Shown here: piece after piece, positions 17,985 through 49,517 of the stretch
Layout: every line of letters begins with the position of its first letter
Numbering within the stretch: position 1 is the stretch's first letter
Virus genome (UHGV): UHGV-1451962
Length of the DNA: 64,000 nt
Strand: one strand, 5' to 3'
Source: a virus
The notes under the pieces: generated by a model
The model's database searches: none
The model's input: only the letters and a program-made list of their open reading frames with translations
Told to the model about the DNA's origin: nothing
Made by a program: the position numbers and the translations under genes

Positions 17985-19078
17985 GAAAAAATTTCTTCTA
18001 TTAAACAATCTTTTGCTGGTTTATCTTCTCTGATTTTAATAAAATGAGGATGCCGCAGAGTGTGTTCATTTTTATCAATTTGCATACAATCAATACTGAC
18101 AACATGATTTAAAAATTCTTCTGGATTTTTAAGAATTAGATTTTTATCTTCATCTGTTAAGCCAGAAGAAACTGTTCCAATTTTAACTAATTTTCCTGTA
18201 TTGTCATAGGCTCCTACCTCTAGTGCAGTTTTCCAACCAAAAAAATAAGGTTTAGTAATAGGAGTATAGTTGTCTTTATCTTTAATCCAGTTTATATAAT
18301 AACGTCCTTCTTGCAAACCATCAGGAGTTTCCCAATACTCCCATGTCTCTAAATCTTTTCCTGTATATTTTTTGGTAGCAGGACAAAAACCAATACAGAC
18401 TAAATCCACACTATCTGTACGTTTAATTTTAATAGTAGACCAAGCAGGACGTTTATCAGGATAATACGGCAAATTTTTCTTTTTTAAAACAAGTCCTTCT
18501 CCGCCCACTTTTAAAATAATATCAAGACGTTCTTGAATTTTTGTATCAAAAGCAAAAGCCAATTTAAGAAAATTAAACTGACCTAAATAATGTTTATCCC
18601 AAATTGCTTTTAAAATTTTATACCTATCCCAAGCAGGACAATTAACTAAATTACATCCATCATATTGAATAATATCATGGATATAATAATGAATAAGGTT
18701 ATTCTTTTGTCTTTTGATTGCGGTAGCTGGTAAACACCCCATAATAGTTGTTACTTCTTTTGAAGTTTTTCCTGGATAAAAAATTTCTCCAATTAAAGTA
18801 GTGTTAGGAGGAAGACAACTATCTAAAGCCTTCATAATATGAGGTACATTTTCACCCTTTTCAGAATAATATCCAGTTGTTTTAGAAATATTTCTACTAA
18901 AAAGATAGGAATAATGTTCTGTTTTTTCATACTGATACCAATAACCATCAATTTTTTCTTCAGCAAAATACTCTTTAGAATTTAAAATTTCTGGAAGTTT
19001 ATATGCTTCCATATCAGAAGGAATTTTCCAGATTTTCATTGGCGGAATCATTTTAGCTTCTGGATACAATAATATCAC
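17981..19078 (-). CDS. ATP-dependent DNA ligase
   Basis: Motif I AEEKIDGYW (KxDG), motif IV GGEGLVLKKK, motif V KIK; 365 aa, T7-ligase size. Confidence 0.7.
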   Translation of the reverse strand: MILLYPEAKMIPPMKIWKIPSDMEAYKLPEILNSKEYFAEEKIDGYWYQYEKTEHYSYLFSRNISKTTGYYSEKGENVPHIMKALDSCLPPNTTLIGEIFYPGKTSKEVTTIMGCLPATAIKRQKNNLIHYYIHDIIQYDGCNLVNCPAWDRYKILKAIWDKHYLGQFNFLKLAFAFDTKIQERLDIILKVGGEGLVLKKKNLPYYPDKRPAWSTIKIKRTDSVDLVCIGFCPATKKYTGKDLETWEYWETPDGLQEGRYYINWIKDKDNYTPITKPYFFGWKTALEVGAYDNTGKLVKIGTVSSGLTDEDKNLILKNPEEFLNHVVSIDCMQIDKNEHTLRHPHFIKIREDKPAKDCLIEEIFS

Positions 19079-23991: not shown

Positions 23992-24333
23992 TCAAATCGG
24001 CCCAAAGACGTCCGGTTCATCGGAAGAGGTGGGCGTTTGTGGCGTCAGATTATTCATCACAGTTTCATATTTTATGCCATTTTTAGTATTCTCACGAGTG
24101 GCTTTATTATAATAAAAAGCTTGACTAACTGCATAAGCAGCCCAAGGTAAACTGGCTTCCGCGGCTAACCAAGGCAAAGAACCAGTAAATCCTTCGTGAA
24201 TGCAATAAAATGCTAGAATAATATGAGCGAGAGAATGAACCCATATTAAAGCAGATTCTTGAGCTAAAAGAACTTTTGAAAATTCTTTTTTCTTTTTTCT
24301 TTTGTTTCTATTCTTTTTAACGAAGTTTATCAT
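23992..24333 (-). CDS. Holin-like small membrane protein
   Basis: 113 aa, basic N-terminus then two hydrophobic segments; overlaps and follows endolysin gene. Confidence 0.45.
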   Translation of the reverse strand: MINFVKKNRNKRKKKKEFSKVLLAQESALIWVHSLAHIILAFYCIHEGFTGSLPWLAAEASLPWAAYAVSQAFYYNKATRENTKNGIKYETVMNNLTPQTPTSSDEPDVFGPI

Positions 24334-25114
24334 ATAATCTCTTCATTATAGTGACGCCTTCTAGTCTGGTTAAAAACTTATTAGGCATTAATTTGCCAGT
24401 TTCGTCACCTTTAATTAGTCCCATAGAAACTGCCCAATTTAATTCATCTTTGCCCCAATCAGCATTTTGTTTAGCTAATTGAACTAAATAATTATTCATC
24501 ATTTCATTAAATTTTTCTTGAGTCATGTCTTCATCCTCCTCTTGTTTAATTGTAGGTTTATTATTATTATTTGTTTTAGGTTTTTCAATTATAAAATAAT
24601 ATTTTACTTGTTGTTTGAAAAGACTATAATTACCTCTAGTGCGTGCGGTTTTTGTGCTGTTAGGGTCATTAATATAAATAGTGTTTCCTTGAATATTCCA
24701 CACTAAAATGAAATGACCACTACTTGTCCATAATCCTTTGCCCATACAAGCTATAACTAAATTACCTTTATCAATTTCAGCTTTTGCTAAATTATGATAT
24801 TTACTAGAACTATTACCATAAATATTTGCACCATTCAGCATATAGGCTGTTAAACCGTATCGTGCAGCAGCAGGTTTAAAATATCCATAATAAGTTCCTT
24901 GGTGAGGAGCTTTATAACCATGCGCTAAAGCCCAGGCACATTCAGTTTTTGGAGTAACTTTTTTATCTGCCCATGTAGCTAAAACCATAGACATTGCGGT
25001 GGGACCGCAGCCAGAAGCGCCGATTGTAGTTGATTCACCTTTTGCTGAATAGCTAATATTTTTCCATCTTGCGTCTGTTTGTAAATAAGATACAGGCTGT
25101 GTATTCATATACAT
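24317..25114 (-). CDS. Endolysin: papain-like (C39-type) cysteine peptidase with C-terminal SLH domain
   Basis: Catalytic Cys motif GASGCGPTAMSMVL, downstream SSGHFILV His; C-terminal WAVSMGLIKGDETGKLMPNKFLTRLEGVTIM matches SLH pattern. Confidence 0.65.
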   Translation of the reverse strand: MYMNTQPVSYLQTDARWKNISYSAKGESTTIGASGCGPTAMSMVLATWADKKVTPKTECAWALAHGYKAPHQGTYYGYFKPAAARYGLTAYMLNGANIYGNSSSKYHNLAKAEIDKGNLVIACMGKGLWTSSGHFILVWNIQGNTIYINDPNSTKTARTRGNYSLFKQQVKYYFIIEKPKTNNNNKPTIKQEEDEDMTQEKFNEMMNNYLVQLAKQNADWGKDELNWAVSMGLIKGDETGKLMPNKFLTRLEGVTIMKRLYDKLR

Positions 25115-25182: not shown

Positions 25183-25611
25183 TTAAATTAATTCTGCGAG
25201 TTCTGCTATTTTAGATCTATGGATATTATTTAAAGTTACTTCTCCATAAATATCAGAACCTCTAAAAATTTTAGACATTCTTCTCATGCCATTGTTATTA
25301 CCAGAATAAGCTAATGAGTCAACTTGCGTTTTAGCATCACCATCAATAATACAAATACAATCTTCACCAATACGTTGAAGAGCTAATTTAATTAAAGTTC
25401 TGTCTAAATTTTGTGCTTCTGTTATATAAATACCTGCGTTCATTCCGCTAGTATCATAACCTCTAATATCGCTAAAAGGCAATAAAACTAATTTATCTTC
25501 TTCCATCATACGAAGAACACCTTCTTTACCGCCCAATTTGGCGGAAAGCATATTACCAATTTGTGAGTCAAGTAATTTATCGTCTTTTGTACCTGGGTAA
25601 ACATTAAACAT
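25183..25611 (-). CDS. phoH: PhoH-like ATPase, downstream exon (Walker B half)
   Basis: Contains PhoH motifs IYITEAQNL and IIDGDAKTQVD; lacks Walker A, which lies in ORF 26878..27747. Confidence 0.65.
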   Translation of the reverse strand: MFNVYPGTKDDKLLDSQIGNMLSAKLGGKEGVLRMMEEDKLVLLPFSDIRGYDTSGMNAGIYITEAQNLDRTLIKLALQRIGEDCICIIDGDAKTQVDSLAYSGNNNGMRRMSKIFRGSDIYGEVTLNNIHRSKIAELAELI

Positions 25612-26877
25612 TATAGCTTTCGCTATAAACCTGACTATATCTTATTTCAAACTATTTTTTAAACTAATATATTTATCATATTTTCTTTTTAAAAATCTTG
25701 GATTATTATCATAAAGAGTATTTAAAATATTTAATACTTGTATTCTACCTCTCCATTGTGTATGCCACGCGGTAGTATAAAAATTTTTGTTTTTTTTATC
25801 TGATTGTATTAGAAGGTTTATTATATTTTGAAAATCTTCAACTTCTGTCTCACAATAAGCTGTATAACTTAATGTTACATCTGTGCTAAAATTTTTACTA
25901 TATGAAAGACCGCCATCACCATCAAATAAACCTAAAGCATAAGCTGATAAATATTCTTTAGGGATTTTTTCATAAGGAATATGTGTTATTTTATAAGTTT
26001 TATTTGGCACTATATTATATTTTGCTAAGTCATTATAAATTTGTTCATCTACAAATTCAACTGAACAACAAGTGCTATTTGGACGAATATCATAGATAAT
26101 TTTACTATCTATTTGAATATCATTTTTAAATTTTTCAAGAAGTTCTATATCTTGTTCTTGAATTTGTAATCTAATTCGCCCAGTTTTTCGATAATGGTCT
26201 ACACTTCCATCTGTAAATAAAAATCCTAGCCAATATGCTTTAATAGGAGAGTCGATAATTGAAAAATAATCACTTTTAATTCTCCTATTAATTTTATTTG
26301 TATTTGTAACTTTGATATTTAATTCTTTTAACCTTTTCTTCGTTGTTTCAACATCCAAATTACAATATTTAGCAATTTCTTTAAGAAAAGCTCCTTCTTT
26401 AATCATTTTTTTAATAGTAATAATTTGTTCATCAGATAAATTTTTCTTTTTTCTTCCACCTCTTATTACAACATTATTATCTGTAAGAAGTTTTGTTAAA
26501 TTACGTCTATTATAAGAAGGATATTTTAAAAGTAATTTAGTTATTGACTGACCTTCTAAATACTCTTGTACAATTTGTTTTTCCATAAACTATCTCCTTT
26601 ATTTTAATATTATATATTATTTTTATTAAAGATAGTTTTTCTTTGTTTGTCCAAAATTTTTCAGTTTGAAATCCATGCGCTTCGGAATTTTACTTCCTAC
26701 TCTACTCCCTTACTATAGTTTCGATAGTCGATGAGCCTTCCTCTATTCGAGGCTTGGTTGCTGATTGTCCAATCTATATTATTTTTAAACGTTCACGCTT
26801 AGATTTATTTCATTCTTACGTTGTAGTTAATATAGCTCTAAGGATGTTCCAGCAGTTCACATGGTTTTACTTGAGCC
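25612..26877 (-). mobile_element. Putative group I intron interrupting phoH, carrying a LAGLIDADG homing endonuclease ORF
   Basis: GC-richer, stem-rich ~290-nt segment (26590-26880) plus free-standing endonuclease ORF between the two phoH halves; boundaries approximate. Confidence 0.5.
25642..26586 (-). CDS. LAGLIDADG homing endonuclease (double-motif)
   Basis: Two LAGLIDADG motifs: YWLGFLFTDGSV and AYALGLFDGDGGL; own RBS AAAGGAGATAG. Confidence 0.8.
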   Translation of the reverse strand: MEKQIVQEYLEGQSITKLLLKYPSYNRRNLTKLLTDNNVVIRGGRKKKNLSDEQIITIKKMIKEGAFLKEIAKYCNLDVETTKKRLKELNIKVTNTNKINRRIKSDYFSIIDSPIKAYWLGFLFTDGSVDHYRKTGRIRLQIQEQDIELLEKFKNDIQIDSKIIYDIRPNSTCCSVEFVDEQIYNDLAKYNIVPNKTYKITHIPYEKIPKEYLSAYALGLFDGDGGLSYSKNFSTDVTLSYTAYCETEVEDFQNIINLLIQSDKKNKNFYTTAWHTQWRGRIQVLNILNTLYDNNPRFLKRKYDKYISLKNSLK

Positions 26878-27747
26878 TTACCCTATTTTAATTAACCCAA
26901 GTCTTGCGGAATTAATAGTTGCCACTGTATTACAAAAGATTATAATTTTATCTATTCTATTTTTTTCTAACATATACATTAAAAAAGCTAGAGAAATGTA
27001 AGATTTTCCTACTCCTGCTGGGCCTTGTAACAAAGTAATTTTATTATTAGCTAAACTATCAAAAGCACATTTTTGATATATGTCTCCTTGATATGGTTGT
27101 ACTTTTCCAAACCAGGTAGAATCAAAAGTAGGAAATTTTAAGTAACGATAAGTTTCTCCTGACCAAACCCGCACATCTATAAGTTCATCAAAATTATCAG
27201 GATTTTTTAAAAGTAGATATTCTCCTTTTTTAAGATTAAAATGATTATAGTTAGGATTTTCATAAAATTTAGAAATTAATTCTTCACTAGCAGTAATTTC
27301 TGCAATTCCACTATAAGTATCTAAATCTTCCTCAATAGAAGAAACATTTTCTTTGGGAAACAAACATAAAGCAATATGTTTTAAACTTAAATCATTAGTT
27401 ATAAATTCTAAACATTTATTTGTTTCAAACTCATTCCAAGCATCAGACAAAATTCTAGCATCATCATTAATATCAAAATTCATTTTATCTAAAATGTATT
27501 CATAATTTATTTGATGAATTTTAACAGAATAATTATTTGGATATTTTTCAAATAAATGAAGCAAAAGTCTTGCGGAATATTTTATATCAGAATCTTTATT
27601 TGCCGCAGTTTTAATTCTTTCTAATTCTTTTAAAGTAATAGAAGAAATGATAAATTTCTCATCATCTTCAAAAGCTGATTCTCCGGCTAATAAAAGACTA
27701 CAAGTATCGTAGAATTTAATAATAATTTCCACTCTCCTATTGTTCAA
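26878..27747 (-). CDS. phoH: PhoH-like ATPase, upstream exon (PIN-like N-domain plus Walker A)
   Basis: Walker A LLQGPAGVGKSY near C-terminus; last residues probably intron-encoded read-through. Confidence 0.65.
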   Translation of the reverse strand: MNNRRVEIIIKFYDTCSLLLAGESAFEDDEKFIISSITLKELERIKTAANKDSDIKYSARLLLHLFEKYPNNYSVKIHQINYEYILDKMNFDINDDARILSDAWNEFETNKCLEFITNDLSLKHIALCLFPKENVSSIEEDLDTYSGIAEITASEELISKFYENPNYNHFNLKKGEYLLLKNPDNFDELIDVRVWSGETYRYLKFPTFDSTWFGKVQPYQGDIYQKCAFDSLANNKITLLQGPAGVGKSYISLAFLMYMLEKNRIDKIIIFCNTVATINSARLGLIKIG

Positions 27748-27800: not shown

Positions 27801-28238
27801 TTAATTATTTATGGCCTTTCTTTGTCTTTTTAGAGAAGTAATTACTTTACTTTGAGCTTTTAAATATGTATTTAATTCTTTTTCTTCTGTTTTAATATAA
27901 TCCAAATACTTATTAATTTGCTGTTTTAGTCTTACTATTTCTTTAATGACAATGATATACTCACATTTTTTATTTTCTCTTAAAATATCGTTATAAAATC
28001 TTTTTACAGCATTGTATTCAATATTAGTTTTTTCTTTAATATCTTTTAAAGCATTAATAATTGCTCTTTTGTGAGCTATTGTTTGACCTACTTTGGTTGA
28101 GAAAAAGTCCATATCATCAGAATGACAAGTAGCAGTCCCAGTATAGTATTTTCGTTCATAATAAACTATTGCCTCAATTGAATTATTTGTGTAATTAAAT
28201 TCTACGGGTAAAAGATTAATTGTTTTTCTTAGACTCAT
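27801..28238 (-). CDS. hypothetical protein
   Basis: 145-aa ORF, predicted coiled-coil C-terminus. Confidence 0.4.
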   Translation of the reverse strand: MSLRKTINLLPVEFNYTNNSIEAIVYYERKYYTGTATCHSDDMDFFSTKVGQTIAHKRAIINALKDIKEKTNIEYNAVKRFYNDILRENKKCEYIIVIKEIVRLKQQINKYLDYIKTEEKELNTYLKAQSKVITSLKRQRKAINN

Positions 28239-28409: not shown

Positions 28410-28952
28410 TTACTTAATTCTATTTTTAATATCCTTAATAATCAAATCAATAGAAACAGGGAAATTATTATGAGCATCTAATTCTACATGATAAATAAGA
28501 CCTTTATCCCAATCCGCAAAAGCGTCCTGACTATGAGAGTGTCCGCACAAACTAATCATTCTTGCTTTAAGAGGTTTCTCATTATCAAAATTACTACAAA
28601 GTGTAGGATAATGGCTTAAATAAAAATGATATTTACCATATCTTAAAAATTGACCTTCAGTTACTTTAATAATATTATTACAATTATTATATAAATTTAC
28701 ACGAACTTCACTATCATGGTTTCCTCTAACTACATAAATTTGTCCTTTTAACTGTTTAATTTTTTCAATTCCTGCTTCATTATCATTTAGCATCAAATCA
28801 CCAAGCACATAAACTTTATCATTAGGACGAATAATTTTATTCCAATTTTCAATAATTGCGTTATCATGTTCTTGGATATTCTTAAATCCTCTTGGTTCAT
28901 AAAGAAAGGGCTTATTATGGCCTAGATGAAGATCACTGGTAAACCAAACCAT
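28410..28952 (-). CDS. Calcineurin-like metallophosphoesterase
   Basis: Motifs SDLHLGH, GDLMLND, GNHD, GHSH. Confidence 0.7.
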   Translation of the reverse strand: MVWFTSDLHLGHNKPFLYEPRGFKNIQEHDNAIIENWNKIIRPNDKVYVLGDLMLNDNEAGIEKIKQLKGQIYVVRGNHDSEVRVNLYNNCNNIIKVTEGQFLRYGKYHFYLSHYPTLCSNFDNEKPLKARMISLCGHSHSQDAFADWDKGLIYHVELDAHNNFPVSIDLIIKDIKNRIK

Positions 28953-28954
28953 TA

Positions 28955-29467
28955 TTACACCTCCTCAGGATAATGCAAAATAGTATTCACATTATGAAAA
29001 CCCCAATCAAAATATTTATTCATTTCATCCTTAGAAGGAATAGAAGATTTAAAATAAAAATTTTTTATTGCTTCTTCTGGGACTTTAGCGAAACCTTCTC
29101 TTTCAGAATTTCTTCTTAAAGCAACATCTAAAAGAATAGGAAAATAATCAAAAGTAAGATTAATATTATTCTTATCTTTCAGATCAAAAAAATTGTTTAA
29201 AAGTTTAGCTCTTGAAGAAATATCAATATGAGTCGCATCTATATAAATATTTTCTACATTTTCTTTAATCGCGATTTTAATATTTGCAATCATTTCTTTA
29301 TATACCTGTTTTTCTTTACTAAAATAATTTTTTCCAGGATTTTCGTCTACATAATTCTTGCGGATTTCATCTCTTGAGATAATCTTACCATTCTGCTGTT
29401 TTGCCCAAGTAGATTTGCCGGAAGCAGGAATACCACAAAGAATATGCAAATTAATCATAAATACCAA
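28955..29467 (-). CDS. Polynucleotide 5'-kinase-like P-loop kinase (T4 Pnk kinase-domain type)
   Basis: CGIPASGKSTWA...ISRDEIR matches T4 Pnk GCPGSGKSTWA...RDDYR pattern. Confidence 0.6.
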   Translation of the reverse strand: MVFMINLHILCGIPASGKSTWAKQQNGKIISRDEIRKNYVDENPGKNYFSKEKQVYKEMIANIKIAIKENVENIYIDATHIDISSRAKLLNNFFDLKDKNNINLTFDYFPILLDVALRRNSEREGFAKVPEEAIKNFYFKSSIPSKDEMNKYFDWGFHNVNTILHYPEEV

Positions 29468-29744
29468 ACTCCTTTACATAAGAAATACTATTTTGTGCTT
29501 CTTCTTTAAAAAGTCCTTCTTCAAAATCTAGTTTAAAATTATATGCTTCTTCATCATTTCTACATTCTACCATATTAACAGTTTCTTTACAATGGGGACA
29601 ATACATAACTTTCTTATGCCCAACTTCTCTAAAACGTCCTCTTAATCGAGGAATTGACATTGACTTCTTTCCGCAATTCATACAATAAAAATCGTGCATT
29701 TCATATTTTCTAGGGTCTTTAGACATTTTTATCAAACTCCTCAA
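29451..29744 (-). CDS. Zinc-ribbon protein
   Basis: CMNCG...CPHCK double CxxC. Confidence 0.45.
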   Translation of the reverse strand: MRSLIKMSKDPRKYEMHDFYCMNCGKKSMSIPRLRGRFREVGHKKVMYCPHCKETVNMVECRNDEEAYNFKLDFEEGLFKEEAQNSISYVKEFGIYD

Positions 29745-29898
29745 TTTGTTTTTTTACAATTTCAAAATATTCTTTAAGCTCTTTATTTTCTTTACTTTTG
29801 TTTATTCTTTTAATTTCTGTTTTTTTCCAAAATTTATATTTTAATGTTTCTATATAATTTGTAAAAATAATATGTATATTGTTATCTTTTAAATATTT

Positions 29899-30126
29899 TT
29901 ATGTATAAAGAGGTTTTAAAAAAACAACTGAATGTTCCTGTAAATTATAAATTTCTGGATCTAAATTATAAAAAGAAACAAAATCTTTTAATTTTAAAAT
30001 TATATATTTATGTGTTTTTGTAATTTTGCGGTCTGTTCTATAATTATCATATTGACATATAATATAAAATCCTATGAAAGGTAACGCTAATCCTAATATT
30101 AATTTTGCCATAATTATTTCCTCCAT
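29899..30126 (-). CDS. small membrane protein
   Basis: 75 aa with one hydrophobic segment LILGLALPFIGFYIICQY. Confidence 0.35.
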   Translation of the reverse strand: MEEIIMAKLILGLALPFIGFYIICQYDNYRTDRKITKTHKYIILKLKDFVSFYNLDPEIYNLQEHSVVFLKPLYT

Positions 30127-30839
30127 TAAATAGAAAAGATATGTTCATCAAAAGTATTTAAATCAAAAAGAATAATTTGTTTACTCCAATGAGTATCTAA
30201 ATCAAGATTAACCTTTTGATTATTATTATACCAACAAGCTCCACCTTCATATTTAGGAGGATTGCGAAATTCTCCTATATCTTCTATCATTAGAGGAATT
30301 GGGGTATGGCCATGAACAATTAATTCATTTGGATTAATTAAACATCTAAATTTATAATGTAATCTATTCCAAAGAAAATCAAATTCATCACCAGAAATAT
30401 TATTAGGAGAAAAACCTGCATGACTTAAATGAATTTTAATTCCATTTTTATTAGTGTATTGTTCATAAACTGGAAGTTTATTAATTACATTTAAATACTC
30501 AATAGCATTTTTTTCTTTAGACCAATCTAATAAAGTAGATAAACCTCCATTGTTCATATGAAGATAAATATCATCTCCATATAAACATTTTTCATTTTTT
30601 AGAAATTCTCTTCCAGAATTTACTAACATTTGTTCATGGTTTCCTTTAAGAAGGATAAATCTATCATCTTTTAAAATTTCTTTAAGGATTTTCCAACCTT
30701 CTGTCCCTCTGTCAATTACATCACCCAACACAAATACTTTATCTTCTGCTTGAATGAAATTTTTAATCTGCTTAAACAAATTTGAATTGCCATGAAGGTC
30801 AGTAAAACAATAAACTTTACCCTTATTCATAAACATCAA
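30126..30839 (-). CDS. Metallophosphoesterase (PPP/ApaH-like phosphatase)
   Basis: Motifs TDLHGN, GDVIDRG, GNHE, GHTP. Confidence 0.7.
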   Translation of the reverse strand: MMFMNKGKVYCFTDLHGNSNLFKQIKNFIQAEDKVFVLGDVIDRGTEGWKILKEILKDDRFILLKGNHEQMLVNSGREFLKNEKCLYGDDIYLHMNNGGLSTLLDWSKEKNAIEYLNVINKLPVYEQYTNKNGIKIHLSHAGFSPNNISGDEFDFLWNRLHYKFRCLINPNELIVHGHTPIPLMIEDIGEFRNPPKYEGGACWYNNNQKVNLDLDTHWSKQIILFDLNTFDEHIFSI

Positions 30840-30892
30840 TTCCTTTCTTAATTTCTATATATATTATATAATATTTTTTTAAAAAAATAAAT

Positions 30893-30923
30893 TAAGGGCA
30901 AAAGATCTTAATCTTTGCCCTTA
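30893..30923 (-). terminator. Rho-independent terminator hairpin
   Basis: AAGGGCAAAGAT/ATCTTTGCCCTT inverted repeat in AT-rich context. Confidence 0.5.
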
Positions 30924-30929
30924 ATTCTT

Positions 30930-31148
30930 TTAATCTTCAATTTCTTCTATTTCACCATTAATAATTCTTTTACAATATTCTTCTTCACAAATATCATCTA
31001 AATTATGAATTGTATCAAAAGAATAATATAAATTAATATAATCTTCTTTCGTTGCGTAAGGATTTGCAAACATAAAATTGTCAAAATCCTTATCTACCAT
31101 AGCACGAATATATTCCATAAAATCTTTTTTATCAATTACAATTTTCAA
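30930..31148 (-). CDS. hypothetical small acidic protein
   Basis: 72-aa ORF. Confidence 0.4.
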   Translation of the reverse strand: MKIVIDKKDFMEYIRAMVDKDFDNFMFANPYATKEDYINLYYSFDTIHNLDDICEEEYCKRIINGEIEEIED

Positions 31149-31325
31149 AGAATAAAGCCTCCGAGCCGCAAGATTTCAAAAATAAACCAAAATACACAAA
31201 AAAGAAACCAGAAAATACGCATTTTCTTTTCTTGACATCTATTGTGTAAAATTGTTTCGCATAGCAAAACTCCATTAATACACATTAAAATGCCCCAAAT
31301 AATCGTCATTATTAAATGAAACATA

Positions 31326-31775
31326 TTAGGTCATTACCTCCGATACAATTTGATTAACAATTTTCATATCTGCCTTACCCTTAAAAACAGGAGCAAAAAG
31401 TTTCATTGCTCTACCTTTGTTTGCCTTAGTTGCATCAAGTTCATTTTCGGCAAGCATTTTTTCAATTTGAGTTTTAATTGTTTCTTTATCGGTAAGAAGC
31501 TGTGGTGCATACTGCTTTACAACAGCCATATCAAGATTATATTGAATAAATAACTCTTTGCGGTTTTCTGGACAAGTATCAATCATTTCTTGAATCATCT
31601 TTTGATACTTAATTAAAGTATTATTAACAAGCTCTTCGGTAATTTCAATTCTGCCTTTTGGCGTAATTGCTGCTTTTTGTACTTCACCAATCATATTGGA
31701 AAGTACATTCTTCTTTTGAGTATCACCATTCTTCAAAGCCTGCATCATATCATTGTGCATAATTTCTAAAGTCAT
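31326..31775 (-). CDS. GatB/YqeY-domain protein
   Basis: 149 aa with YqeY-like pattern including C-terminal KGKADMKIVNQIV. Confidence 0.55.
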   Translation of the reverse strand: MTLEIMHNDMMQALKNGDTQKKNVLSNMIGEVQKAAITPKGRIEITEELVNNTLIKYQKMIQEMIDTCPENRKELFIQYNLDMAVVKQYAPQLLTDKETIKTQIEKMLAENELDATKANKGRAMKLFAPVFKGKADMKIVNQIVSEVMT

Positions 31776-31777
31776 AT

Positions 31778-33055
31778 TTAAACCTCCTGTGCTTCTTCCA
31801 TATCGGGCTGGGTTTCAGTATCTTTAACTAGACCTTCAAGAACTTTAAATTCCCAGGTTTTTTGTTTTAATGCAGTAAAAGTACGTCTATTAGCGATTCT
31901 AACCACTACACCTTCTTTAACATGAGTTAAACCAATTGGGTCAACAATATCTTCAAAATATTTGTCAATTTTAGCGAGCAAGTCATCAATAGTAGTAAAC
32001 TCAAAATCCTCAATGATAGGAACACGATTAAAACCATATTCATTGCACCAAGTAGTAATTTCCTCTGGAGAATATTCATATTCACCATTATGAGAAGTAA
32101 TTCTATAAATCCACATTGCAGAATGACCAGGAGTACAACCATAAGAAAAAGTAGTATATTTACCAAACTTTTTCATAAATTTCTTGTCATTGATTTTACT
32201 ATTATCTACAATTGGCATAATAGTTTCATTTTCTTTTGCTCCATACCAACCAACTACTTCATAAAAAACCTCCATACCTTCATTAAGATAAGGTTTCAAA
32301 GCTTCATGGTGACTAAATCTAAATTTGTCATTACCATAATAACCTGCTCCATCAGTGGTAACAACAGTTCTACGAGTACCTAAAACATACTGCAACTTTC
32401 TCTTAGGTTTCATGTGAAATAGCTTTCTAAACCAAGACATAGGATATTCTGCCCAAGTATATGCACTACGTTGGCTAGTACCATGCATTTTAAGGGTTAG
32501 ATTAATTTTATCTCCAGGTCTAAAGATTCCAAGATTATAAGCTAATTGGGCAGTATTAATATGCATGGCAAAATCAGGATACTTAATTCCAGCTGCTTTA
32601 CGACCTTTATAAGAAGTTTTAGGAGTAGTGCGAGGAGTAGCCGAAGGTTTAGGAATATATTTATAACAAAATAGCTTATTATTAATTTCAGTGACTTGAT
32701 CGCCATCTTTCCAATTTTGCTCACCAAAATGCTCAACAATAGTAGAATAAGAAATAACAATACCAGAAGATTCATTACCTCTTAGCTTAATTGCTCTAAT
32801 ATGAGCATTATTTTCCAAATAACCACCTTGTGCGGTACCATCTAAATTCTTGCGGAAAAGCTTAAACTCATCACCAAACCAACGCTCAATAGCTCCATCA
32901 GTAGGAAGATAAAGAACTAATTCATCTTCCTTCATATCAGGGCCTACAATAACTCCTTCTCTAAAACAATCTGCTAAATAGAGTCTATCAGAATTAGGGT
33001 CTTTTCTTACATTTTCAATTTTAGTTACTAAACCATAGTACGCCATAAATGTCAA
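31778..33055 (-). CDS. ATP-dependent RNA ligase (Rnl2-like nucleotidyltransferase) with N-terminal extra domain
   Basis: Motif I LKMHGTS (KxHGT as T4 Rnl2 KIHGTN), motif III EVFYEVVG, motif IV EGVVVRI, motif V KQKTWEFK. Confidence 0.65.
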   Translation of the reverse strand: MTFMAYYGLVTKIENVRKDPNSDRLYLADCFREGVIVGPDMKEDELVLYLPTDGAIERWFGDEFKLFRKNLDGTAQGGYLENNAHIRAIKLRGNESSGIVISYSTIVEHFGEQNWKDGDQVTEINNKLFCYKYIPKPSATPRTTPKTSYKGRKAAGIKYPDFAMHINTAQLAYNLGIFRPGDKINLTLKMHGTSQRSAYTWAEYPMSWFRKLFHMKPKRKLQYVLGTRRTVVTTDGAGYYGNDKFRFSHHEALKPYLNEGMEVFYEVVGWYGAKENETIMPIVDNSKINDKKFMKKFGKYTTFSYGCTPGHSAMWIYRITSHNGEYEYSPEEITTWCNEYGFNRVPIIEDFEFTTIDDLLAKIDKYFEDIVDPIGLTHVKEGVVVRIANRRTFTALKQKTWEFKVLEGLVKDTETQPDMEEAQEV

Positions 33056-33065
33056 ACTCCTTTAT

Positions 33066-33377
33066 TTAAATTTCATAACCTTGCACCTCCATAACTGCTA
33101 AAGATTTATAGACCATTTTACCACTTTTACTTTTAGCTTTTGTTACCATACCCATTTCAATCAAATGCCCAAGAATCCTAGCCATTTTTTGAGTGGAAAC
33201 ACCTGTTAATTGAATACTATTCTTTTTAATTTCATCTATTGTCATGGCTTCTGCTGATTGAGCAAGAATAACCGCAGTTTCACCTTGCCAAATTGCAGTC
33301 TGATCTTTACTATATTTGCTTTTTCTATAAGTCATAAAATTCAACTCCTCAATTTTTAATAAACCATTCTTTGCCAA
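33066..33377 (-). CDS. hypothetical protein
   Basis: 103-aa ORF. Confidence 0.4.
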   Translation of the reverse strand: MAKNGLLKIEELNFMTYRKSKYSKDQTAIWQGETAVILAQSAEAMTIDEIKKNSIQLTGVSTQKMARILGHLIEMGMVTKAKSKSGKMVYKSLAVMEVQGYEI

Positions 33378-34179
33378 AGTAAGTAGTATGATGAGTAATA
33401 CATGAAGTTAATTTTTTTTCAATTGCAGAAATGGTAGTTCGGTTCTTTTCTTTAACCATTAAATTATAAATTGCTTCAACAGCAGTTTTTTTATCAAAAA
33501 AATAACCACTACAATTTGTTTTTTTACAGTTAGAGTTTTTAAAATATACTACTCCTTGCGGGACATCTTTTAAAGCTGTTTTCTTTTTAATAATTTTTTT
33601 ATCTTCTTCTTCAATTTCAATAAAATCCATAATTGGAAAAAGAAAATTTCTAGCTGCGTTCCAATTAAAATCTTTTTGAGTTTCCACAGCAATATTATAT
33701 AACATAATAGCATCATCTAAACTATTATGATTCTGTAAATTATCATATTTATTTAAATAAGAATAAAATTTAGTTAGTTTAATATTGTCGATTTTTAATT
33801 TTTTACAAATTTTTCTTGAAAAATCTCTAATAGAACCACTCATATATCCTAAAATAGAACGTGCTTTTAAAGAGTTAGTTCTTTTAAATGTATGTCGAAT
33901 ATATTCTACATCACAACTACCCCAAGTATAAAATTCAGGAAAATTATCCTCCAATTTATTAAAAACCCAATCATATAACTTTTCAAAAACTTCTTCGGAA
34001 TTTGGAGCGTTATTTAATTTTTCTTTTGTTAAACCAGTTAATTCAATAAGAGCGTTAGTAATTTTTCCTTCTTTAGGTTTTACAAGAGAATAAAAAGTTT
34101 TTCCATCTTCTCTTACAACACCTACTGAAATAATTTCCTCAACATATTTTGCAGCTTCAAAGTCAATATAGTATTTCAT
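33349..34179 (-). CDS. DEDDh 3'-5' exonuclease (DnaQ-like)
   Basis: Exo I YIDFEA, Exo III HNSLDDA. Confidence 0.7.
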   Translation of the reverse strand: MKYYIDFEAAKYVEEIISVGVVREDGKTFYSLVKPKEGKITNALIELTGLTKEKLNNAPNSEEVFEKLYDWVFNKLEDNFPEFYTWGSCDVEYIRHTFKRTNSLKARSILGYMSGSIRDFSRKICKKLKIDNIKLTKFYSYLNKYDNLQNHNSLDDAIMLYNIAVETQKDFNWNAARNFLFPIMDFIEIEEEDKKIIKKKTALKDVPQGVVYFKNSNCKKTNCSGYFFDKKTAVEAIYNLMVKEKNRTTISAIEKKLTSCITHHTTYFGKEWFIKN

Positions 34180-34259
34180 AAAACTTCAACCTCTTTCTTA
34201 TTTATTTATTCCTTAACTTTCTATATATATTATATAATATTTTTTTAAAAAAATAAATT

Positions 34260-34289
34260 AAGGACAAAACTTTTAAAAGTTTTGTCCTT
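34260..34289 (-). terminator. Rho-independent terminator hairpin
   Basis: AAGGACAAAACTTTT/AAAAGTTTTGTCCTT inverted repeat. Confidence 0.5.
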
Positions 34290-34310
34290 AAATTTAAAAT
34301 AAATTTCTTT

Positions 34311-34829
34311 TTAACTAGAACATTCATTTACAGAATCTTCGATAGCATTTTTATTACTTATTGCTTCAATACAGTAATCCAATGCCTTTTCAGTAAAAAC
34401 ACCAATTCCAATCATTGCTTTTACTTGTTCTTTACTGAGATAACGCGCAGTCATTTTCTCATTTACTTTCATTTTTTTGCTGCCATTATAGAAACAATGG
34501 TAGCCATAGTCATATCGTGTAGCATAGTCAGAGTTATTATCAAAAATCCTTTCGCCAGGAGTAAAAATAACCTTATAAAAACGATTCATTTCTTCTCCTG
34601 TAAATACTTGACGGCTGATGCTTGAGTTGTATAAAAATGTGATAGTTTCATCAGGATTATTTCGATCGGGCATTTTGCGGGCACCCATAGCTAAAGTGCT
34701 TCCACCAGTATGACAATTACATACAATCAACAATTCTTTATCAGCTTTGATGGCATCTTCTAAATCTTTGCTTTTGTAAAACGCGATACGTCCATTGGGG
34801 AAAATTCGTGCTTCATATTTATTAGTCAT
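34311..34829 (-). CDS. hypothetical protein
   Basis: 172-aa ORF, no confident motif. Confidence 0.4.
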   Translation of the reverse strand: MTNKYEARIFPNGRIAFYKSKDLEDAIKADKELLIVCNCHTGGSTLAMGARKMPDRNNPDETITFLYNSSISRQVFTGEEMNRFYKVIFTPGERIFDNNSDYATRYDYGYHCFYNGSKKMKVNEKMTARYLSKEQVKAMIGIGVFTEKALDYCIEAISNKNAIEDSVNECSS

Positions 34830-34831
34830 TA

Positions 34832-35161
34832 TTATTTCTCCCTTAAAGTAATTGTATAAATTTTTCCATCTACTTTTAGTATTTCATAATCTTTATATAA
34901 TTCATTAACTGAAACAGAATCATTTATAATAACATCATAACGACAAGGAGAAGAATCATCAGATTTTAAATAAAAAGCAGCTAATAAACCAATCGTTACT
35001 CCCCATATAAGAGGTACTAAATTTCCTTCAGGTGTCATATCAAACCAAAGCATTTTAACTAAAAAGAAAAACAATATACCAGTTAAAATACTAAGAATAA
35101 TAATTAAACTTGCATCCAAAGTAAAATCATATTGTTTTAAAACTGTAACGCCATCAATCAT
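34832..35161 (-). CDS. small membrane protein
   Basis: 109 aa with two hydrophobic segments. Confidence 0.4.
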   Translation of the reverse strand: MIDGVTVLKQYDFTLDASLIIILSILTGILFFFLVKMLWFDMTPEGNLVPLIWGVTIGLLAAFYLKSDDSSPCRYDVIINDSVSVNELYKDYEILKVDGKIYTITLREK

Positions 35162-35900
35162 TAATTAAATCCTCTAAATTATAAATATTTTCAAATAACA
35201 TATATCTACCATCATAGTAATCTGTATTTGCGTGAAAATGTCCCCAGAACCAATTATTCCAAGAAAACTTATCTTTTAAATCATTCATCCAAATTTCCAT
35301 AGTATTGTCAATAGTAGATTGATCAATTCCAGGAAGAAATAAAGCAGTAGGACGCCAATCAAAAGGACAAGTATGAGATAGAACTAAATCATAATGATGA
35401 TTAATCACTTTATTGTTAATATCTAACATCTCTTGCTGTGTTAATTGTTCATCAGGAAACCAACCAGTCCAATCATCGGTACGATTCAAAGTAGCCTGCA
35501 TTAATCTATAATGTTTATCAACCGAATAAGCACCACCAAGAACAATAGCAGAATGACCATTAAAGTAGTAAGTATTTCCGTCAATCAAATATTTAAGGTT
35601 AGGAAAATCCGGTTGAGTATAAATCCAACCTTGAATTTCTGCATCCCAAATTTCTTGAATATTAGGTAAATTTTTAGGATGCTCTTCATGGTTTCCCCGC
35701 ACACAATAAATTGAATATCCTAAATCATTTACTCTTTTCTTCCACTTTTGCTCTTTTTTATCTAACCAAAAATTAAATCCTGCATCTCCAAGAATAATAA
35801 GAGAAGAATTTTTAGGAGAGCAAGAATATTGTTCAATCATTTGACAAATACGTTGATAATTTTTACCGTGCGTATCTCCAGTAATAAAGTACTGTTTCAC
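35154..35900 (-). CDS. Metallophosphoesterase
   Basis: Motifs GDTHG, GDAGFN, GNHE, GHFH. Confidence 0.7.
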   Translation of the reverse strand: MKQYFITGDTHGKNYQRICQMIEQYSCSPKNSSLIILGDAGFNFWLDKKEQKWKKRVNDLGYSIYCVRGNHEEHPKNLPNIQEIWDAEIQGWIYTQPDFPNLKYLIDGNTYYFNGHSAIVLGGAYSVDKHYRLMQATLNRTDDWTGWFPDEQLTQQEMLDINNKVINHHYDLVLSHTCPFDWRPTALFLPGIDQSTIDNTMEIWMNDLKDKFSWNNWFWGHFHANTDYYDGRYMLFENIYNLEDLIND

Positions 35901-35912
35901 TAGAATTCCTCC

Positions 35913-36809
35913 TTAAAAAGTAGTAGGTTGAAAATATGAGCATAAATAACTTTCAATGATATTTAATAATACTTCATCCATGTAATTAGAAATTTCTACA
36001 TTAATAGAATAATTTTTTCTTTCATTACTTAATCGCTCATACTGATTCTTTACCCATTCTTGCTGATCTTCAACAAAAATTTTTACAAAACTTAAATCTT
36101 CATATCCATTTTTATAAAAGATTAATCTTTCTCTCCAAAAACTATCATAACACTTTAAACAAATAGAATAAGAATCATTCAAGTAACAACTATAAAATAA
36201 TCTAAGTCTATTTAAATGGCTAAAGCACTTTGGGTCATAACCAAATTTTTCTACAACTTCTTTTCGACTCTCTGTTGGTTTAAACATGCGATTAATCTCA
36301 TTTTGCATCATGCCAAGCATACTATTTAAAGCTCTAAACTCATCATAATGAGCAATTTCATCTCTTTTATAAATTAATTTATTCCAAAAAGATTGATATT
36401 TTGGATTTACATAATAGTAATCAGTGTATAAAATTTCTAAAAAATTAATATTCTGTTTGCGGAATTCATTCATATAAAGCCGCACATCTTTAAAATCAAT
36501 GTGTTCATTATTATCTAAAACATGAGTATAACTCACTGGTTTTTTATTAAAAGCCAAATCTTCAATAGTAGGAATAATAAGACATTTAGTATCAACATCC
36601 GAATTTGCTGTATCAAGACCATAATTAGCGGCACCTTGATAAAAAATACCAAGAATATTTTCTTCAGAAAAAATTTTTAAAGCTTCTTGGTAATGCTCCA
36701 TTACTCTTGTTTGAATTTCAATATAAGAATGATAATTGGTAGATTTTTCCTCTTGCTTTTGAATATAAATAGTTTTAATAATATTATATAAATTTTGATA
36801 ATTATTCAT
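35913..36809 (-). CDS. Pol-beta-superfamily nucleotidyltransferase
   Basis: GAANYGLDTANSDVDTKCLI fits GS-x9-13-DxD nucleotidyltransferase signature. Confidence 0.55.
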   Translation of the reverse strand: MNNYQNLYNIIKTIYIQKQEEKSTNYHSYIEIQTRVMEHYQEALKIFSEENILGIFYQGAANYGLDTANSDVDTKCLIIPTIEDLAFNKKPVSYTHVLDNNEHIDFKDVRLYMNEFRKQNINFLEILYTDYYYVNPKYQSFWNKLIYKRDEIAHYDEFRALNSMLGMMQNEINRMFKPTESRKEVVEKFGYDPKCFSHLNRLRLFYSCYLNDSYSICLKCYDSFWRERLIFYKNGYEDLSFVKIFVEDQQEWVKNQYERLSNERKNYSINVEISNYMDEVLLNIIESYLCSYFQPTTF

Positions 36810-36810: not shown

Positions 36811-37155
36811 TTAAATCTCCTCCCAATGATTATGCTGAATAATTCTTCTCATATTTTGAACTCCCACAGGATTTTGGGAATGAAGATGAAATTTACAAGA
36901 AAGAGGCCAAGCAAAAGCATTTTGAACTCTCTCTAACCAATTTAAAATTTCAATATAATCGCCACCATCAGAAGCAAAATCTCCAGCATCATAGTCGAGA
37001 GATATTAAATCAAGAAAAATATCATCAGTTAATCCAATTAAAAAACCATTTTGAGCAAAAGAAATCATAGTTTTCGCTTGTTCGACAGATTTAGCCCAAA
37101 TATAACCAGTAGGCGCAGGTCGAATATCATCCACCCATAATTTCATAAACATCAA
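36811..37155 (-). CDS. hypothetical protein
   Basis: 114-aa ORF. Confidence 0.4.
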   Translation of the reverse strand: MMFMKLWVDDIRPAPTGYIWAKSVEQAKTMISFAQNGFLIGLTDDIFLDLISLDYDAGDFASDGGDYIEILNWLERVQNAFAWPLSCKFHLHSQNPVGVQNMRRIIQHNHWEEI

Positions 37156-37232: not shown

Positions 37233-38294
37233 TTATTTTATAATATTTTTAAAACGCTCTAACATAACTGCCATTTGCTCTCTAGTTAAATAAGCTTTGG
37301 GTAAAAGATAGCCTTTATCATCACCTTGAAGAATACCTGTACTAACAGCCCATTCAACACTTGCTTTAGCCCAATTAGAAATATCATTTTTATCTTTAAA
37401 TTTATCTAATGTATTCATATTTGTCCTCCCAATATTATAATATTTATCAATATCAATAGAATTTGGTTCAGGTAAAATTACCGCACCAAATCCTGTTTTT
37501 GGATCAATTCCCTTATCGCCTATATCTTTACAATTATCTTTGAAGAATTGAATCATTCCTTCTCTTGTTAGAGGTAATCCTTTTTTATCAATAAAGAAAT
37601 CATCTACCAGACAGCTCATTCCACATAACCAAGGTGTAGAAAAAGAAGTGCCAGAATTGGAATAAGTTGCTGCGTCTGGTTTTGTAGCTTGCGGATTTAA
37701 ATAAATCATACTAGGCGCAGAAAAGTCTACATAATTACTAATACTAGAATAATAAGCAGGATTTACTGTACCATCTACCATTAAAGTATAAGCAGCTACG
37801 CCGATTACTTCTTCAATTTCCATAATTGGATTATATTTTTTAGAAGAATCATTTCCTGCGCTCCAAAAGGGTTTAAAATTAGGATGTTTAATATACCAAT
37901 TTTTTAAATCTTCAAAAAATTTGGTATGTCTACTACAATTTAAAGAGGTAAACATATTGGTAATATTATATTTTTCAATAATTTCTACTGATTCATTAAA
38001 AAATTTAGAGTTATAATTATCTCCACCGCCATAACTGCCATCAATGGAATAAAGCATAAATAAATGAGCTTTTGGAGCTACTTGGAAAAATGTTGCCGCG
38101 GTATTTATTGGATGTTCATTTGACATTTGTTTATCTTTTAAACAATTTCTTACTAAATTATCTGGATTATATCTATTAATATCCCAGGTTTCTCCACTTG
38201 CAGCATTTACTCTTTCTCCAAAATAGCCCGCATTATGGAAACGAGTTACACCTGTAAAGTTTCTATGTCTATTATCATCATTTAATAATATCAT
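37233..38294 (-). CDS. Putative serine peptidase-like cell-wall protein with C-terminal SLH domain
   Basis: SGTSFSTPW resembles subtilase GTSxAxP Ser motif; C-terminal WAVSTGILQGDDKGYLLPKAYLTREQMAVML matches SLH pattern. Confidence 0.45.
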   Translation of the reverse strand: MILLNDDNRHRNFTGVTRFHNAGYFGERVNAASGETWDINRYNPDNLVRNCLKDKQMSNEHPINTAATFFQVAPKAHLFMLYSIDGSYGGGDNYNSKFFNESVEIIEKYNITNMFTSLNCSRHTKFFEDLKNWYIKHPNFKPFWSAGNDSSKKYNPIMEIEEVIGVAAYTLMVDGTVNPAYYSSISNYVDFSAPSMIYLNPQATKPDAATYSNSGTSFSTPWLCGMSCLVDDFFIDKKGLPLTREGMIQFFKDNCKDIGDKGIDPKTGFGAVILPEPNSIDIDKYYNIGRTNMNTLDKFKDKNDISNWAKASVEWAVSTGILQGDDKGYLLPKAYLTREQMAVMLERFKNIIK

Positions 38295-49506: not shown

Positions 49507-49517
49507 TAATTAATATA

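Follow-up and report, generated by a model that had tools for sequence, protein, structure and literature searches.

We analyzed a 64-kb window (the whole stretch of 64,000 nucleotides) from the uncultured virus genome UHGV-1451962. Its segment at 25.2-39.9 kb, together with two flanking arrays of tRNA genes, is best read as an RNA end-healing and sealing island, an interpretation to which we give a probability of roughly 0.65. By analogy with phage T4, such an island would probably be directed against host tRNA-cleaving nucleases. What the data show, as described below, is to which families and folds the proteins belong, that active sites are conserved, that genes are coupled and that the set as a whole is kept in relatives. 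The original prediction for this DNA had proposed a healing-and-sealing toolkit that lies beside phage tRNA genes and apart from the replicative DNA ligase. Profile, fold and context evidence bears this out, although several of its details proved wrong or over-extended. All of the open reading frames (ORFs) that it had named are present on the minus strand where it had placed them, and its broad family call for each was upheld by Pfam and PHROG. Its parts list left out a cREC protein, a DEDD exonuclease, a Ro60-like protein, a PIN-PhoH protein and Y-RNA-like elements. The classification by profile or structure that it had called for upheld the kinase, moved the ligase from Rnl2 to Rnl5, and moved the nucleotidyltransferase (NTase) from the CCA-adding enzymes to RlaP.

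Candidate enzymes of RNA end healing and sealing

The gene at 31778-33046 (minus strand) encodes, as judged from sequence profiles, motifs and a structural model, an ATP-dependent RNA ligase of Rnl5 architecture that belongs to a distinct, mostly phage-borne subfamily. It matches RNA_ligase (PF09414; 27.4 bits, cut-off 27) and phrog_968 (E = 1.8e-45), and its family, clustered at 50% identity, makes up 1823 clusters in the representative library and appears in 379 phage records. A single-sequence search of the PDB returned nothing useful. A profile built from 60 relatives (29-53% identity) matched the Naegleria gruberi RNA ligase (NgrRnl) with E = 3e-11 and T4 Rnl2 only marginally (E = 0.057); the alignment with NgrRnl covers residues 8-178, from the N-terminal OB domain through motif I, and a second stretch with motifs IIIa-IV. 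When an AF2 model of the ligase (pLDDT 79.7) was submitted to Foldseek, the top 13 matches were all NgrRnl, aligned over the full length and down to E = 8e-15, followed by archaeal Rnl3 (4e-7), REL1/Rnl2 (1e-6), DNA ligases (8e-5 or weaker) and Rnl1 (4e-4). The sole NCBIfam match was TIGR02306 (RNA_lig_DRB0094, DraRnl; 30.6 bits, E = 1.5e-7). Because profile, fold and NCBIfam agree, we assign the protein to Rnl5.

The motifs KMHGTS and EGVVVR are present in the ligase and invariant in its family. Among the 60 relatives, K189 (KxHGTS), E266, Y305, E381-G382, K397 and K399 (motifs I, III, IIIa, IV and V) do not vary, and K189, E381 and K399 correspond to NgrRnl K170, E312 and K326 in the profile alignment. 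Like the Rnl5 enzymes of Deinococcus radiodurans (DraRnl) and Naegleria (NgrRnl), the protein has an N-terminal OB domain and a C-terminal NTase domain with no C-terminal appendage, and its catalytic residues align with theirs. Unlike them, it has about 85 additional aa and carries insertions between motifs I and III, and its identity to NgrRnl in the fold alignment is only about 14-15% (TM score 0.37-0.45). Thus, the earlier call of an RNA ligase with KxHGT and EGxxxR motifs stands, whereas its assignment to the Rnl2 type does not: the NTase domain is C-terminal, the T4 Rnl2 profile match reached only E = 0.057, and the Rnl2 fold match lies eight orders of magnitude below that of NgrRnl. A DNA-ligase identity was also rejected, given the fold matches to DNA ligases of 8e-5 or weaker and the presence of a dedicated ATP-dependent DNA ligase in the replication module (17981-19078; phrog_114, E = 1.4e-33), which is the separate replicative enzyme that had been predicted. 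Some homologues of the RNA ligase (P0134, P0140, P0145, P0163 and similar) are 590-810 aa long and match the query in two separated stretches, which suggests that they carry inteins or other large insertions.

Directly downstream of the ligase gene is the predicted GatB/YqeY protein (31326-31775, minus strand), confirmed by a match to PF09424 (59.2 bits) and belonging to phrog_1460. A YqeY gene is also found near the ligase in three relatives (L003, L008 and L009; related contigs are cited by such locus numbers), and the protein could possibly serve as a tRNA-binding accessory factor.

The gene at 28955-29458 (minus strand) encodes a stand-alone polynucleotide 5'-kinase of the T4 PseT/Pnkp clade, with 167 aa and the kinase domain only. 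The T4 Pnk-like P-loop kinase of the original prediction is therefore retained, as PHROG, PDB and PseT active-site residues agree. The protein matches AAA_33 (47 bits), the 'polynucleotide kinase' family phrog_505 (E = 2.8e-17) and TIGR04075 in NCBIfam, and its solved relatives are PSTK (E = 4e-8) and the RNA-repair enzyme Pnkp1 (4xrp; E = 1e-3). A total of 315 phage records match it, mostly annotated as pseT or polynucleotide kinase. It was aligned with four other Pnk types, namely a T4-like PseT (Acinetobacter phage PhT2), the kinase-phosphatase-ligase fusion of a Staphylococcus phage, the kinase-HD protein of a Bacillus phage and a Microbacterium phage Pnk. In this alignment G14-K15-S16, D30, R33, R116 and R120 are invariant, representing the P-loop, the catalytic Asp-x-x-Arg and the distal Arg pair. 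The kinase has no HAD-type 3'-phosphatase domain, and a separate metallophosphoesterase (MPE) gene comes next. The stop codon (TAA) of the kinase gene and the ATG of this MPE gene are one base apart, with a strong Shine-Dalgarno sequence (GAGGAGG) upstream, and on the other side the stop codon of a small zinc-ribbon gene (29451-29726, minus strand; phrog_1257, E = 6.8e-11, only weak zinc-ribbon matches in Pfam) overlaps the kinase start in an ATGA-type arrangement.

Four MPE genes had been predicted, and all four exist, each with its metal-binding motifs retained as read from the sequence. However, only MPE1 to MPE3 are linked by context to the repair genes; MPE4 (59724-60446; Metallophos 32.5 bits) is a distant paralogue of MPE1 that lies 27 kb away and shows no such link. 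MPE1 (28410-28952, minus strand), the small calcineurin-like protein translationally coupled to the kinase, is a candidate 3'-end healing enzyme. It matches Metallophos_2 (38.5 bits) and phrog_547 (E = 1.9e-42), its motifs DxH, GD, GNHD and GHxH are intact, and its best solved relative is the uncharacterised Aquifex protein aq_1665 (1xm7; E = 7e-6). The adjacency of kinase and MPE1 recurs in three relatives (L003, L008 and L015) and in four unrelated IMG/VR contigs (L036, L041, L057 and L109). A reading of the two proteins as a split Pnkp1-type enzyme was not supported, since MPE1 has no match to the Pnkp1 phosphatase domain. MPE2 (30126-30830, minus strand) belongs to the lambda-phosphatase/PPP family (Metallophos 48.5 bits; phrog_246; lambda phosphatase 1g5b, E = 1.5e-6). 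It also matches positions 170-308 of phrog_8238, a fused 'RNA ligase' family, and by BLASTP residues 185-296 of a 766-aa kinase-phosphatase-ligase protein of Staphylococcus phage S-CoN_Ph14 (E = 2.5e-6), whose N-terminus in turn matches the window kinase (E = 1.7e-10). MPE3 (35154-35900, minus strand) matches Metallophos (47.8 bits) and phrog_1649 (E = 1.1e-20), and a search for solved relatives of MPE3 found none that was informative. A 260-289-aa Metallophos gene comes after the RlaP-like gene in all relatives examined (L003, L005, L008, L009, L013 and L015).

The Pol-beta nucleotidyltransferase at 35913-36809 (minus strand) is, from its profile matches and motifs, a divergent RlaP-type repair enzyme, predicted to extend the 3'-OH of damaged RNA by one or two nucleotides. 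Whereas the window protein scores 21.0 bits against PF10127, its orthologue in L003 reaches 24.4 bits, above the cut-off, and 29 of 36 homologues match this family (best E = 6.4e-7); the only other family seen was the generic NTP_transf_2 (three members). The NTase motif GAANYGLDTANSDVD is present, and G59, S70, D71 and D73 are invariant. No solved relative was found by a single-sequence PDB search or with a profile of the homologues. The gene lies 2.9 kb upstream of the ligase, and this linkage is kept in relatives. RlaP enzymes, of which T4 NrdC.11 is a member, extend damaged RNA at its 3'-OH by 1-2 NMP in vitro, favour the 5' half of cleaved tRNA and restore aminoacylation after excessive damage (PMC12776372). 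A repair role had been one of two possibilities offered for this NTase. The other, a CCA-adding enzyme, was rejected: neither the window protein nor the 36 homologues match the PolyA_pol head domain of Pfam (at E 0.01 or better), and it is further disfavoured because 15 of the 17 tRNA genes already encode CCA.

The gene that abuts RlaP on its upstream side (36811-37146, minus strand) encodes a cREC (cyclic-phosphate-processing receiver-like) protein with a clear match to PF20274 (69.3 bits; cut-off 27). D51 and D53 (LDxDxG), H89 and the NPVG motif are invariant, the N-terminal DD is found in five of six sequences, and the gene is kept in L003, L005, L008, L009 and L013. cREC has been predicted in the literature to open 2',3'-cyclic phosphates (PMC7824862, PMC9503650). 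Between RlaP and the ligase, a DEDD (RNase T/DnaQ-like) 3'-5' exonuclease (33349-34179, minus strand; RNase_T 40.3 bits), a candidate end trimmer, occupies the same position in L008 and L009.

These genes could act in one pathway. A metal-independent host ribotoxin, most plausibly an anticodon nuclease, would cut tRNA and leave 2',3'-cyclic-phosphate and 5'-OH ends. The cyclic phosphate or 3'-phosphate would then be taken off by cREC, the MPEs or both, and the 5'-OH would be phosphorylated by the PseT-type kinase. RlaP may restore one or two excised nucleotides, possibly after trimming by the DEDD exonuclease, and the Rnl5-type ligase would finally seal the 3'-OH/5'-phosphate break with ATP. 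The Ro60-like protein described below, with its Y-RNA-like partners, would probably serve as an RNA-binding platform or a quality-control branch. The substrates, the order of the steps and the counter-defence purpose are proposed by analogy with T4 and with published comparative genomics. The pathway as such is suggested by the coupling of the zinc-ribbon, kinase and MPE1 genes, by the Staphylococcus phage fusion of a kinase, an MPE2-like phosphatase and a ligase, by the linkage of ligase and kinase in distant phages, and by the gene set kept in relatives.

Conservation of the gene set and its bearing on function

In contigs of 140-250 kb whose ligase is about 70% identical to that of the window, the gene order is Ro60-like, major vault protein (MVP)/vault-like, cREC, RlaP-like, MPE, RNase T, ligase, nicotinamidase, phosphoribosyltransferase, YqeY, NAPRTase, NAD synthase, MPE, kinase, MPE and PIN-PhoH. 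One of them has an additional Thg1 gene before the kinase, and one has a Band_7 protein gene before PIN-PhoH. A more distant relative, with a 37% identical ligase, keeps the Ro60-like, ligase, RlaP and MPE3-like genes and the kinase-MPE1 pair in a changed order. The set recurs at 37-70% ligase identity, including rearranged order, which speaks for more than a chance grouping. Elsewhere, a kinase-HD protein follows the ligase in Bacillus siphophages, a Pnk precedes it in Microbacterium phage Musetta, and an MPE and a DnaQ-like exonuclease flank it in Omega-like mycobacteriophages. A modular 'syntax' of RNA-repair genes with displacement of components has been described in phages (PMC7824862; also PMC9503650), and both the window locus and these distant variants match it. 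The NAD+ salvage genes between ligase and kinase in relatives (L003 11515-16082 and 16873-17718; L008 11523-16286), like the Thg1 3'-5' polymerase inserted there in one relative, are not found at this position in the window phage.

Several points weigh against a dedicated repair island. The functions of its proteins are read from their families, folds, motifs and gene context, and the host nuclease that it would counter is hypothetical. The ligase, with 30.6 bits, stays far below the equivalog cut-off of TIGR02306 (151 bits), and the window RlaP is under the PF10127 gathering cut-off of 23 bits. The characterised Rnl5 enzymes DraRnl and NgrRnl (Shuman laboratory) reportedly seal duplex nicks and not broken anticodon loops. 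Sequence singles out none of the four MPEs, which belong to different subfamilies, as an enzyme of RNA ends; MPE2 is as close to protein Ser/Thr phosphatases and ApaH as to any RNA enzyme, and no close relative of MPE1 or MPE3 has been characterised. A single phage lineage supplies most of the synteny evidence, part of which is accounted for by shared ancestry. In addition, the cluster has unrelated genes in its midst, such as those for an S8 protease with an S-layer-homology (SLH) domain and for small membrane proteins. It may be split into about three transcription units, as suggested by two minus-strand hairpins that resemble terminators (37228-37206 and 34291-34258) and by another hairpin after MPE1, all of them consensus matches only.

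Some of these points would also be expected if the genes were co-located auxiliary genes with no common pathway, which we consider quite unlikely. The MPEs would then be protein phosphatases, hydrolases of nucleotide signals or Ap4A, or DNA-repair nucleases, the ligase would serve replication or recombination by sealing RNA-DNA junctions or nicks, and the clustering would reflect the packing of early and middle genes. MPE2 is indeed closest to the lambda Ser/Thr phosphatase, PrpA/B and ApaH, MPE1 has weak matches to the YfcE, SbcD-related and PdeM families, and with DNA as the template, Rnl5 enzymes can seal a 3'-OH RNA strand. The interspersed genes, the terminator-like sites and the NAD-salvage genes inserted in relatives point the same way. 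However, the translational coupling of kinase and MPE1, the repetition of their adjacency in unrelated contigs, the kinase-phosphatase-ligase fusion of the Staphylococcus phage and the conserved cREC-RlaP-MPE3 trio speak against unconnected functions. The same applies to the retention of the set after rearrangement and to the dedicated DNA ligase in the replication module.

At the downstream end of the cluster lies a PIN-PhoH gene (RNase plus ATPase; 25183-27747, minus strand), which is interrupted by an ORF for a LAGLIDADG_3 endonuclease (25642-26586). The PIN_4 domain and part of PhoH are encoded at 26878-27747 and the C-terminal part of PhoH at 25183-25611, and an uninterrupted 418-aa PIN-PhoH protein is encoded at the same position in L003 and L008. 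Stop codons between the split ORFs exclude an intein, and an Rfam search of the split PhoH gene for an intron found none. The presence of PIN-PhoH and of the DEDD nuclease would be consistent with an offensive or regulatory module, in which these nucleases cut host RNAs and the kinase, ligase and RlaP remodel RNA ends, such as in the making or modification of small RNAs. Alternatively, such a module might hijack host PNPase through Ro60 and Y RNA, as proposed for phage phiLo, whose Ro60/Yrl complex binds this host enzyme (PMC12135203). We regard this explanation as very improbable, because nothing indicates a specific host target and the enzymes match the published repair 'syntax' piece by piece (PMC7824862).

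A Ro60-like protein beside the tRNA arrays and Y-RNA-like elements inside them

The first gene after tRNA array 1 (38351-39874, minus strand) encodes a protein with DUF2828 (105 bits) and DUF7788 (132 bits) domains and the MIDAS motif DTSSS. Neither a Pfam TROVE match (even at E up to 10; only DUF2828 and DUF7788 were reported) nor a solved relative (in a single-sequence PDB search) was found. The AF2 model (pLDDT 80.6) nevertheless retrieved Ro60/TROVE proteins as all of its top 13 Foldseek matches (E = 1e-8 to 2e-5, TM 0.47-0.57, 520-580 aligned columns), including Xenopus, human and Deinococcus Ro60 and the Ro60 of Thermus phage phiLo; further matches covered the vWA domain only (E = 4e-3 or weaker). 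Judged from this model, the DUF2828+DUF7788 protein appears to be a Ro60-like HEAT-repeat ring with a vWA domain. PF11443 was not mentioned in the papers found, and those naming DUF2828 were uninformative.

In relatives, a 700-810-aa MVP-like protein (MVP_shoulder, Vault and Vault_3) is encoded one or two genes downstream of the Ro60-like gene (L003 3161-5596, L008 1485-3926, L013 11959-14355 and L014 12987-15110). This gene is absent from the window, where an S8 protease gene is found instead. The pairing of MVP-like and Ro60-like proteins recalls the association of vaults with a TROVE protein in eukaryotes.

The two tRNA arrays are on the same strand as the Ro60-like gene. Array 1 (39930-41241, minus strand), immediately upstream of it, has seven tRNAs, and array 2 (48466-50582, minus strand) has ten ARAGORN calls, one of which is an odd tRNA-like element. 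ARAGORN thus reports 17 tRNAs, in line with the approximately 17 that had been predicted, and Rfam reports 15. Most of them are readers of A/U-ending codons (Lys-UUU, Glu-UUC, Gln-UUG, Arg-UCU and, twice, Leu-UAA), and a tRNA-Ile with a UAU anticodon is located at 50507-50582 (minus strand). The set fits codon-usage compensation and equally the replacement of typical targets of anticodon nucleases.

Directly 3' of tRNA-Leu(UAG) in array 2, a YrlA-like noncoding RNA (ncRNA) candidate was detected at 49873-49988 (minus strand), on the same strand as the Ro60-like gene and 10 kb upstream of it. In a permissive Rfam scan of the tRNA region it matches RF02553 over its full length with 30.2 bits (E = 0.003), and equivalent matches in relatives (L013 and L015) reach 32-34 bits, all below the gathering threshold of 69. 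In the minimum-free-energy fold, a 9-bp closing stem surrounds T-like, middle (acceptor-like) and D-like hairpins in YrlA order. A motif derived from four such RNAs, consisting of CAGCAA, a T-loop and a D-loop in YrlA order, was found by an IMG/VR scan at at least 120 loci (L018-L137) and is widespread in viral contigs. Among the matches listed, 121 of 125 lie outside ARAGORN tRNAs, 37 of 120 short motif loci encode a DUF2828-type protein (a raw fraction, not set against the IMG/VR background frequency), and all 38 pairs of RNA and DUF2828 gene are co-oriented at a median distance of 836 nt. Three T-stem pairs that the motif does not fix are all formed in 100 of 109 distinct sequences, compared with 19.5 expected (maximum 30) from shuffled partners, and the closing helix has a mean length of 8.0 bp versus 5.9 bp in controls.

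The window has nine copies of AGAY-N5-CAGCAA versus 0.21 expected. Six of them fall within the tRNA arrays on the gene strand, each at the start of a closing helix of 7-9 bp (41256-41320, 48546-48689, 48723-48885, ~49164-49276, 49362-49424 and 49874-49990, minus strand, the last being the YrlA-like match). They appear to form a multi-copy family of Y-RNA-like elements whose inner modules vary. One of them has a closing stem (UAGACUC/GAGUCUA) that encloses the odd 'tRNA-???' called by ARAGORN at 49175-49250 (minus strand), which has a four-base anticodon (tgaa) and no encoded CCA and is less likely to be a frameshift-suppressor tRNA than the tRNA-like part of a Y-like RNA. A neighbouring 434-aa protein was tried as a route to related tRNA arrays and had no relatives in IMG/VR. 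In relatives, the tRNA arrays upstream of the Ro60-like gene also carry a ROOL RNA (362 bits; L013 1701-2299) and a tmRNA (86.5 bits; L015 1113-1437), neither of which was detected in the window.

Taken together, these data suggest that DUF2828/DUF7788 proteins are a large phage Ro60 family with its own class of Y RNA, and that these Pfam families could be annotated as Ro60-like. Phage Ro60/Y RNA pairs are already known (PMC4201824, PMC12135203); what may have gone unrecognised is DUF2828 as a Ro60 family and its place beside an ATP-dependent repair set. As in bacterial Rsr-YrlA and phiLo Ro60-Yrl, the window locus combines the predicted ring fold of TROVE plus vWA with a co-oriented nearby ncRNA candidate that has a closing stem and a T-arm/D-arm module in YrlA order (PMC4201824, PMC12135203). 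It differs from them in that the protein has no Pfam TROVE match, the window RNA is below the Rfam threshold and the conserved RNA motif is CAGCAA instead of the reported GNCGAA/CGAA. In addition, the linked ligase is ATP-dependent and Rnl5-like, whereas Rsr-YrlA of Salmonella is linked to RtcB.

A stronger version of the repair pathway, which at present seems rather doubtful, would make the Ro60-like ring the scaffold of a repair factory: Ro60 would carry up to six of the Y-like RNAs from the tRNA arrays, and the broken or misfolded tRNAs that it captures would be passed to cREC, the MPEs, Pnk, RlaP and the ligase. If it were true, a Ro ribonucleoprotein would be physically coupled to ATP-dependent healing and sealing, while the known bacterial Ro loci are tied to RtcB, and DUF2828/DUF7788 would be the main phage Ro60 family, with a widespread Y RNA class marked by CAGCAA.

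The Ro60-like protein and the Y-RNA-like elements, together with the position of the cluster right after a tRNA array, would also fit a hub for RNA quality control and processing of the phage's own tRNAs and small RNAs, with Ro60/Y RNA, the exonuclease, PIN-PhoH, RlaP and YqeY maturing or culling transcripts. Ro60 is known to cooperate with exoribonucleases in RNA quality control (PMC4201824, PMC12135203), and relatives of the window phage have the tRNA 5'-end polymerase Thg1 in addition, and their tRNA arrays also include ROOL and tmRNA. We nevertheless think such a hub unlikely. Neither a polynucleotide 5'-kinase nor an ATP-dependent RNA ligase is known to be required for tRNA maturation in bacteria, the linkage of ligase and Pnk is also found in phages with few or no tRNAs nearby, and CCA is already encoded in most of the tRNA genes here.

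Relation to known repair systems and genomic setting

In T4, Pnkp (PseT) and Rnl1 counteract PrrC by healing a 2',3'-cyclic-phosphate/5'-OH break and then sealing it, and the proposed island resembles this system in its logic. The window kinase shares the P-loop, the catalytic Asp and the Arg residues of PseT, and T4 also has an RlaP, NrdC.11 (PMC12776372). The window kinase differs in that it lacks the HAD 3'-phosphatase domain and is a stand-alone protein of 167 aa followed by an MPE. The ligase is Rnl5-like (Rnl1 fold match, E = 4e-4), and cREC, the Ro60-like protein, the DEDD exonuclease and YqeY are additional. Pnkp/Hen1 of Clostridium thermocellum, Pnkp1-Rnl-Hen1 of Capnocytophaga and the phrog_8238 fusions likewise combine a PseT-type kinase, a binuclear MPE and an ATP-dependent ligase, and in the Staphylococcus phage fusion the first domain is matched by the window kinase and the second by MPE2. 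In the window, by contrast, these activities would reside in separate genes, and the ligase is of another clade, without a match to the ligase domain of the fusion. A Hen1 methyltransferase was not found among the approximately 45 ORFs scanned, which do not cover the window exhaustively.

The locus also resembles published phage RNA-repair neighbourhoods (PMC7824862, PMC9503650), which include an ATP-dependent RNA ligase, a polynucleotide kinase, phosphoesterases of the calcineurin-like and other types, cREC, RlaP, a ROT/TROVE protein and many tRNAs. These surveys center on jumbo and cultured phages, whereas the present case is a 137-kb metagenomic phage in which nearly all parts are found in one 15-kb stretch, with an Rnl5-type ligase and a DUF2828-type Ro60. 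Since such phage counter-defence kits have already been described by comparative genomics, we regard the island as an unusually complete example and not as a new kind. The significance of the locus lies in its composition. About 15 kb of one abundant gut-phage lineage holds a kinase, three candidate healing phosphoesterases, cREC, RlaP, an Rnl5-type ligase, a Ro60-like protein and Y-RNA-like partners. To our knowledge, the biochemistry of phage RNA repair is known almost only from T4 Pnkp and Rnl1; the function of cREC has so far only been predicted, and the characterisation of RlaP, in two Pseudomonas proteins, is very recent. The locus could thus serve as a compact test bed for the division of labour among healing enzymes, for tRNA repair by Rnl5-type ligases in vivo, and for the cooperation of Ro60 and Y RNA with ATP-dependent repair.

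The window is AT-rich (about 29% G+C), and nearly all of its genes are on the minus strand. An identical ligase protein and the same gene order were found on a 137,488-bp metagenome scaffold in the ENA, so that the source is a large, uncultured phage of about 137 kb, probably from the human gut. A near-identity DNA search with the 8.4-kb region against 50,697 phage records gave no match, and thus no cultured phage among these is similar at the DNA level. The replication module at 1-24 kb encodes an anaerobic ribonucleotide reductase (NrdD), a large DNA polymerase, Dda-like and DnaB-like helicases, RecJ, a primase, the DNA ligase and topoisomerase II subunits. The host is probably an anaerobic Firmicute, which fits NrdD and the SLH domains in two proteins. 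These are an S8 subtilase (37233-38294, minus strand) and a C39-like cysteine peptidase (24317-25114, minus strand), each with a C-terminal SLH domain, which hints at an S-layer-bearing host. Bacillus phages vB_BcoS-136 and PBC2, too, have a subtilisin-like gene upstream of the ligase.

Gene calls on the source scaffold and the context of Shine-Dalgarno sequence and ATG place the true starts probably a few codons inside the mechanical ORFs for the kinase (29458), the ligase (33046; 422 aa from the ATG versus 425 aa as mechanical ORF), MPE2 (30830) and cREC (37146). A promoter scan returned 95 sites versus 85.9 ± 9.8 expected; as this is not above chance, no promoter conclusions were drawn. Two conserved ORFs inside the cluster, at 34311-34829 (minus strand, 172 aa) and 27801-28238 (minus strand, 145 aa), have no Pfam or PHROG match, and the 145-aa ORF keeps its place between MPE1 and PIN-PhoH in relatives.

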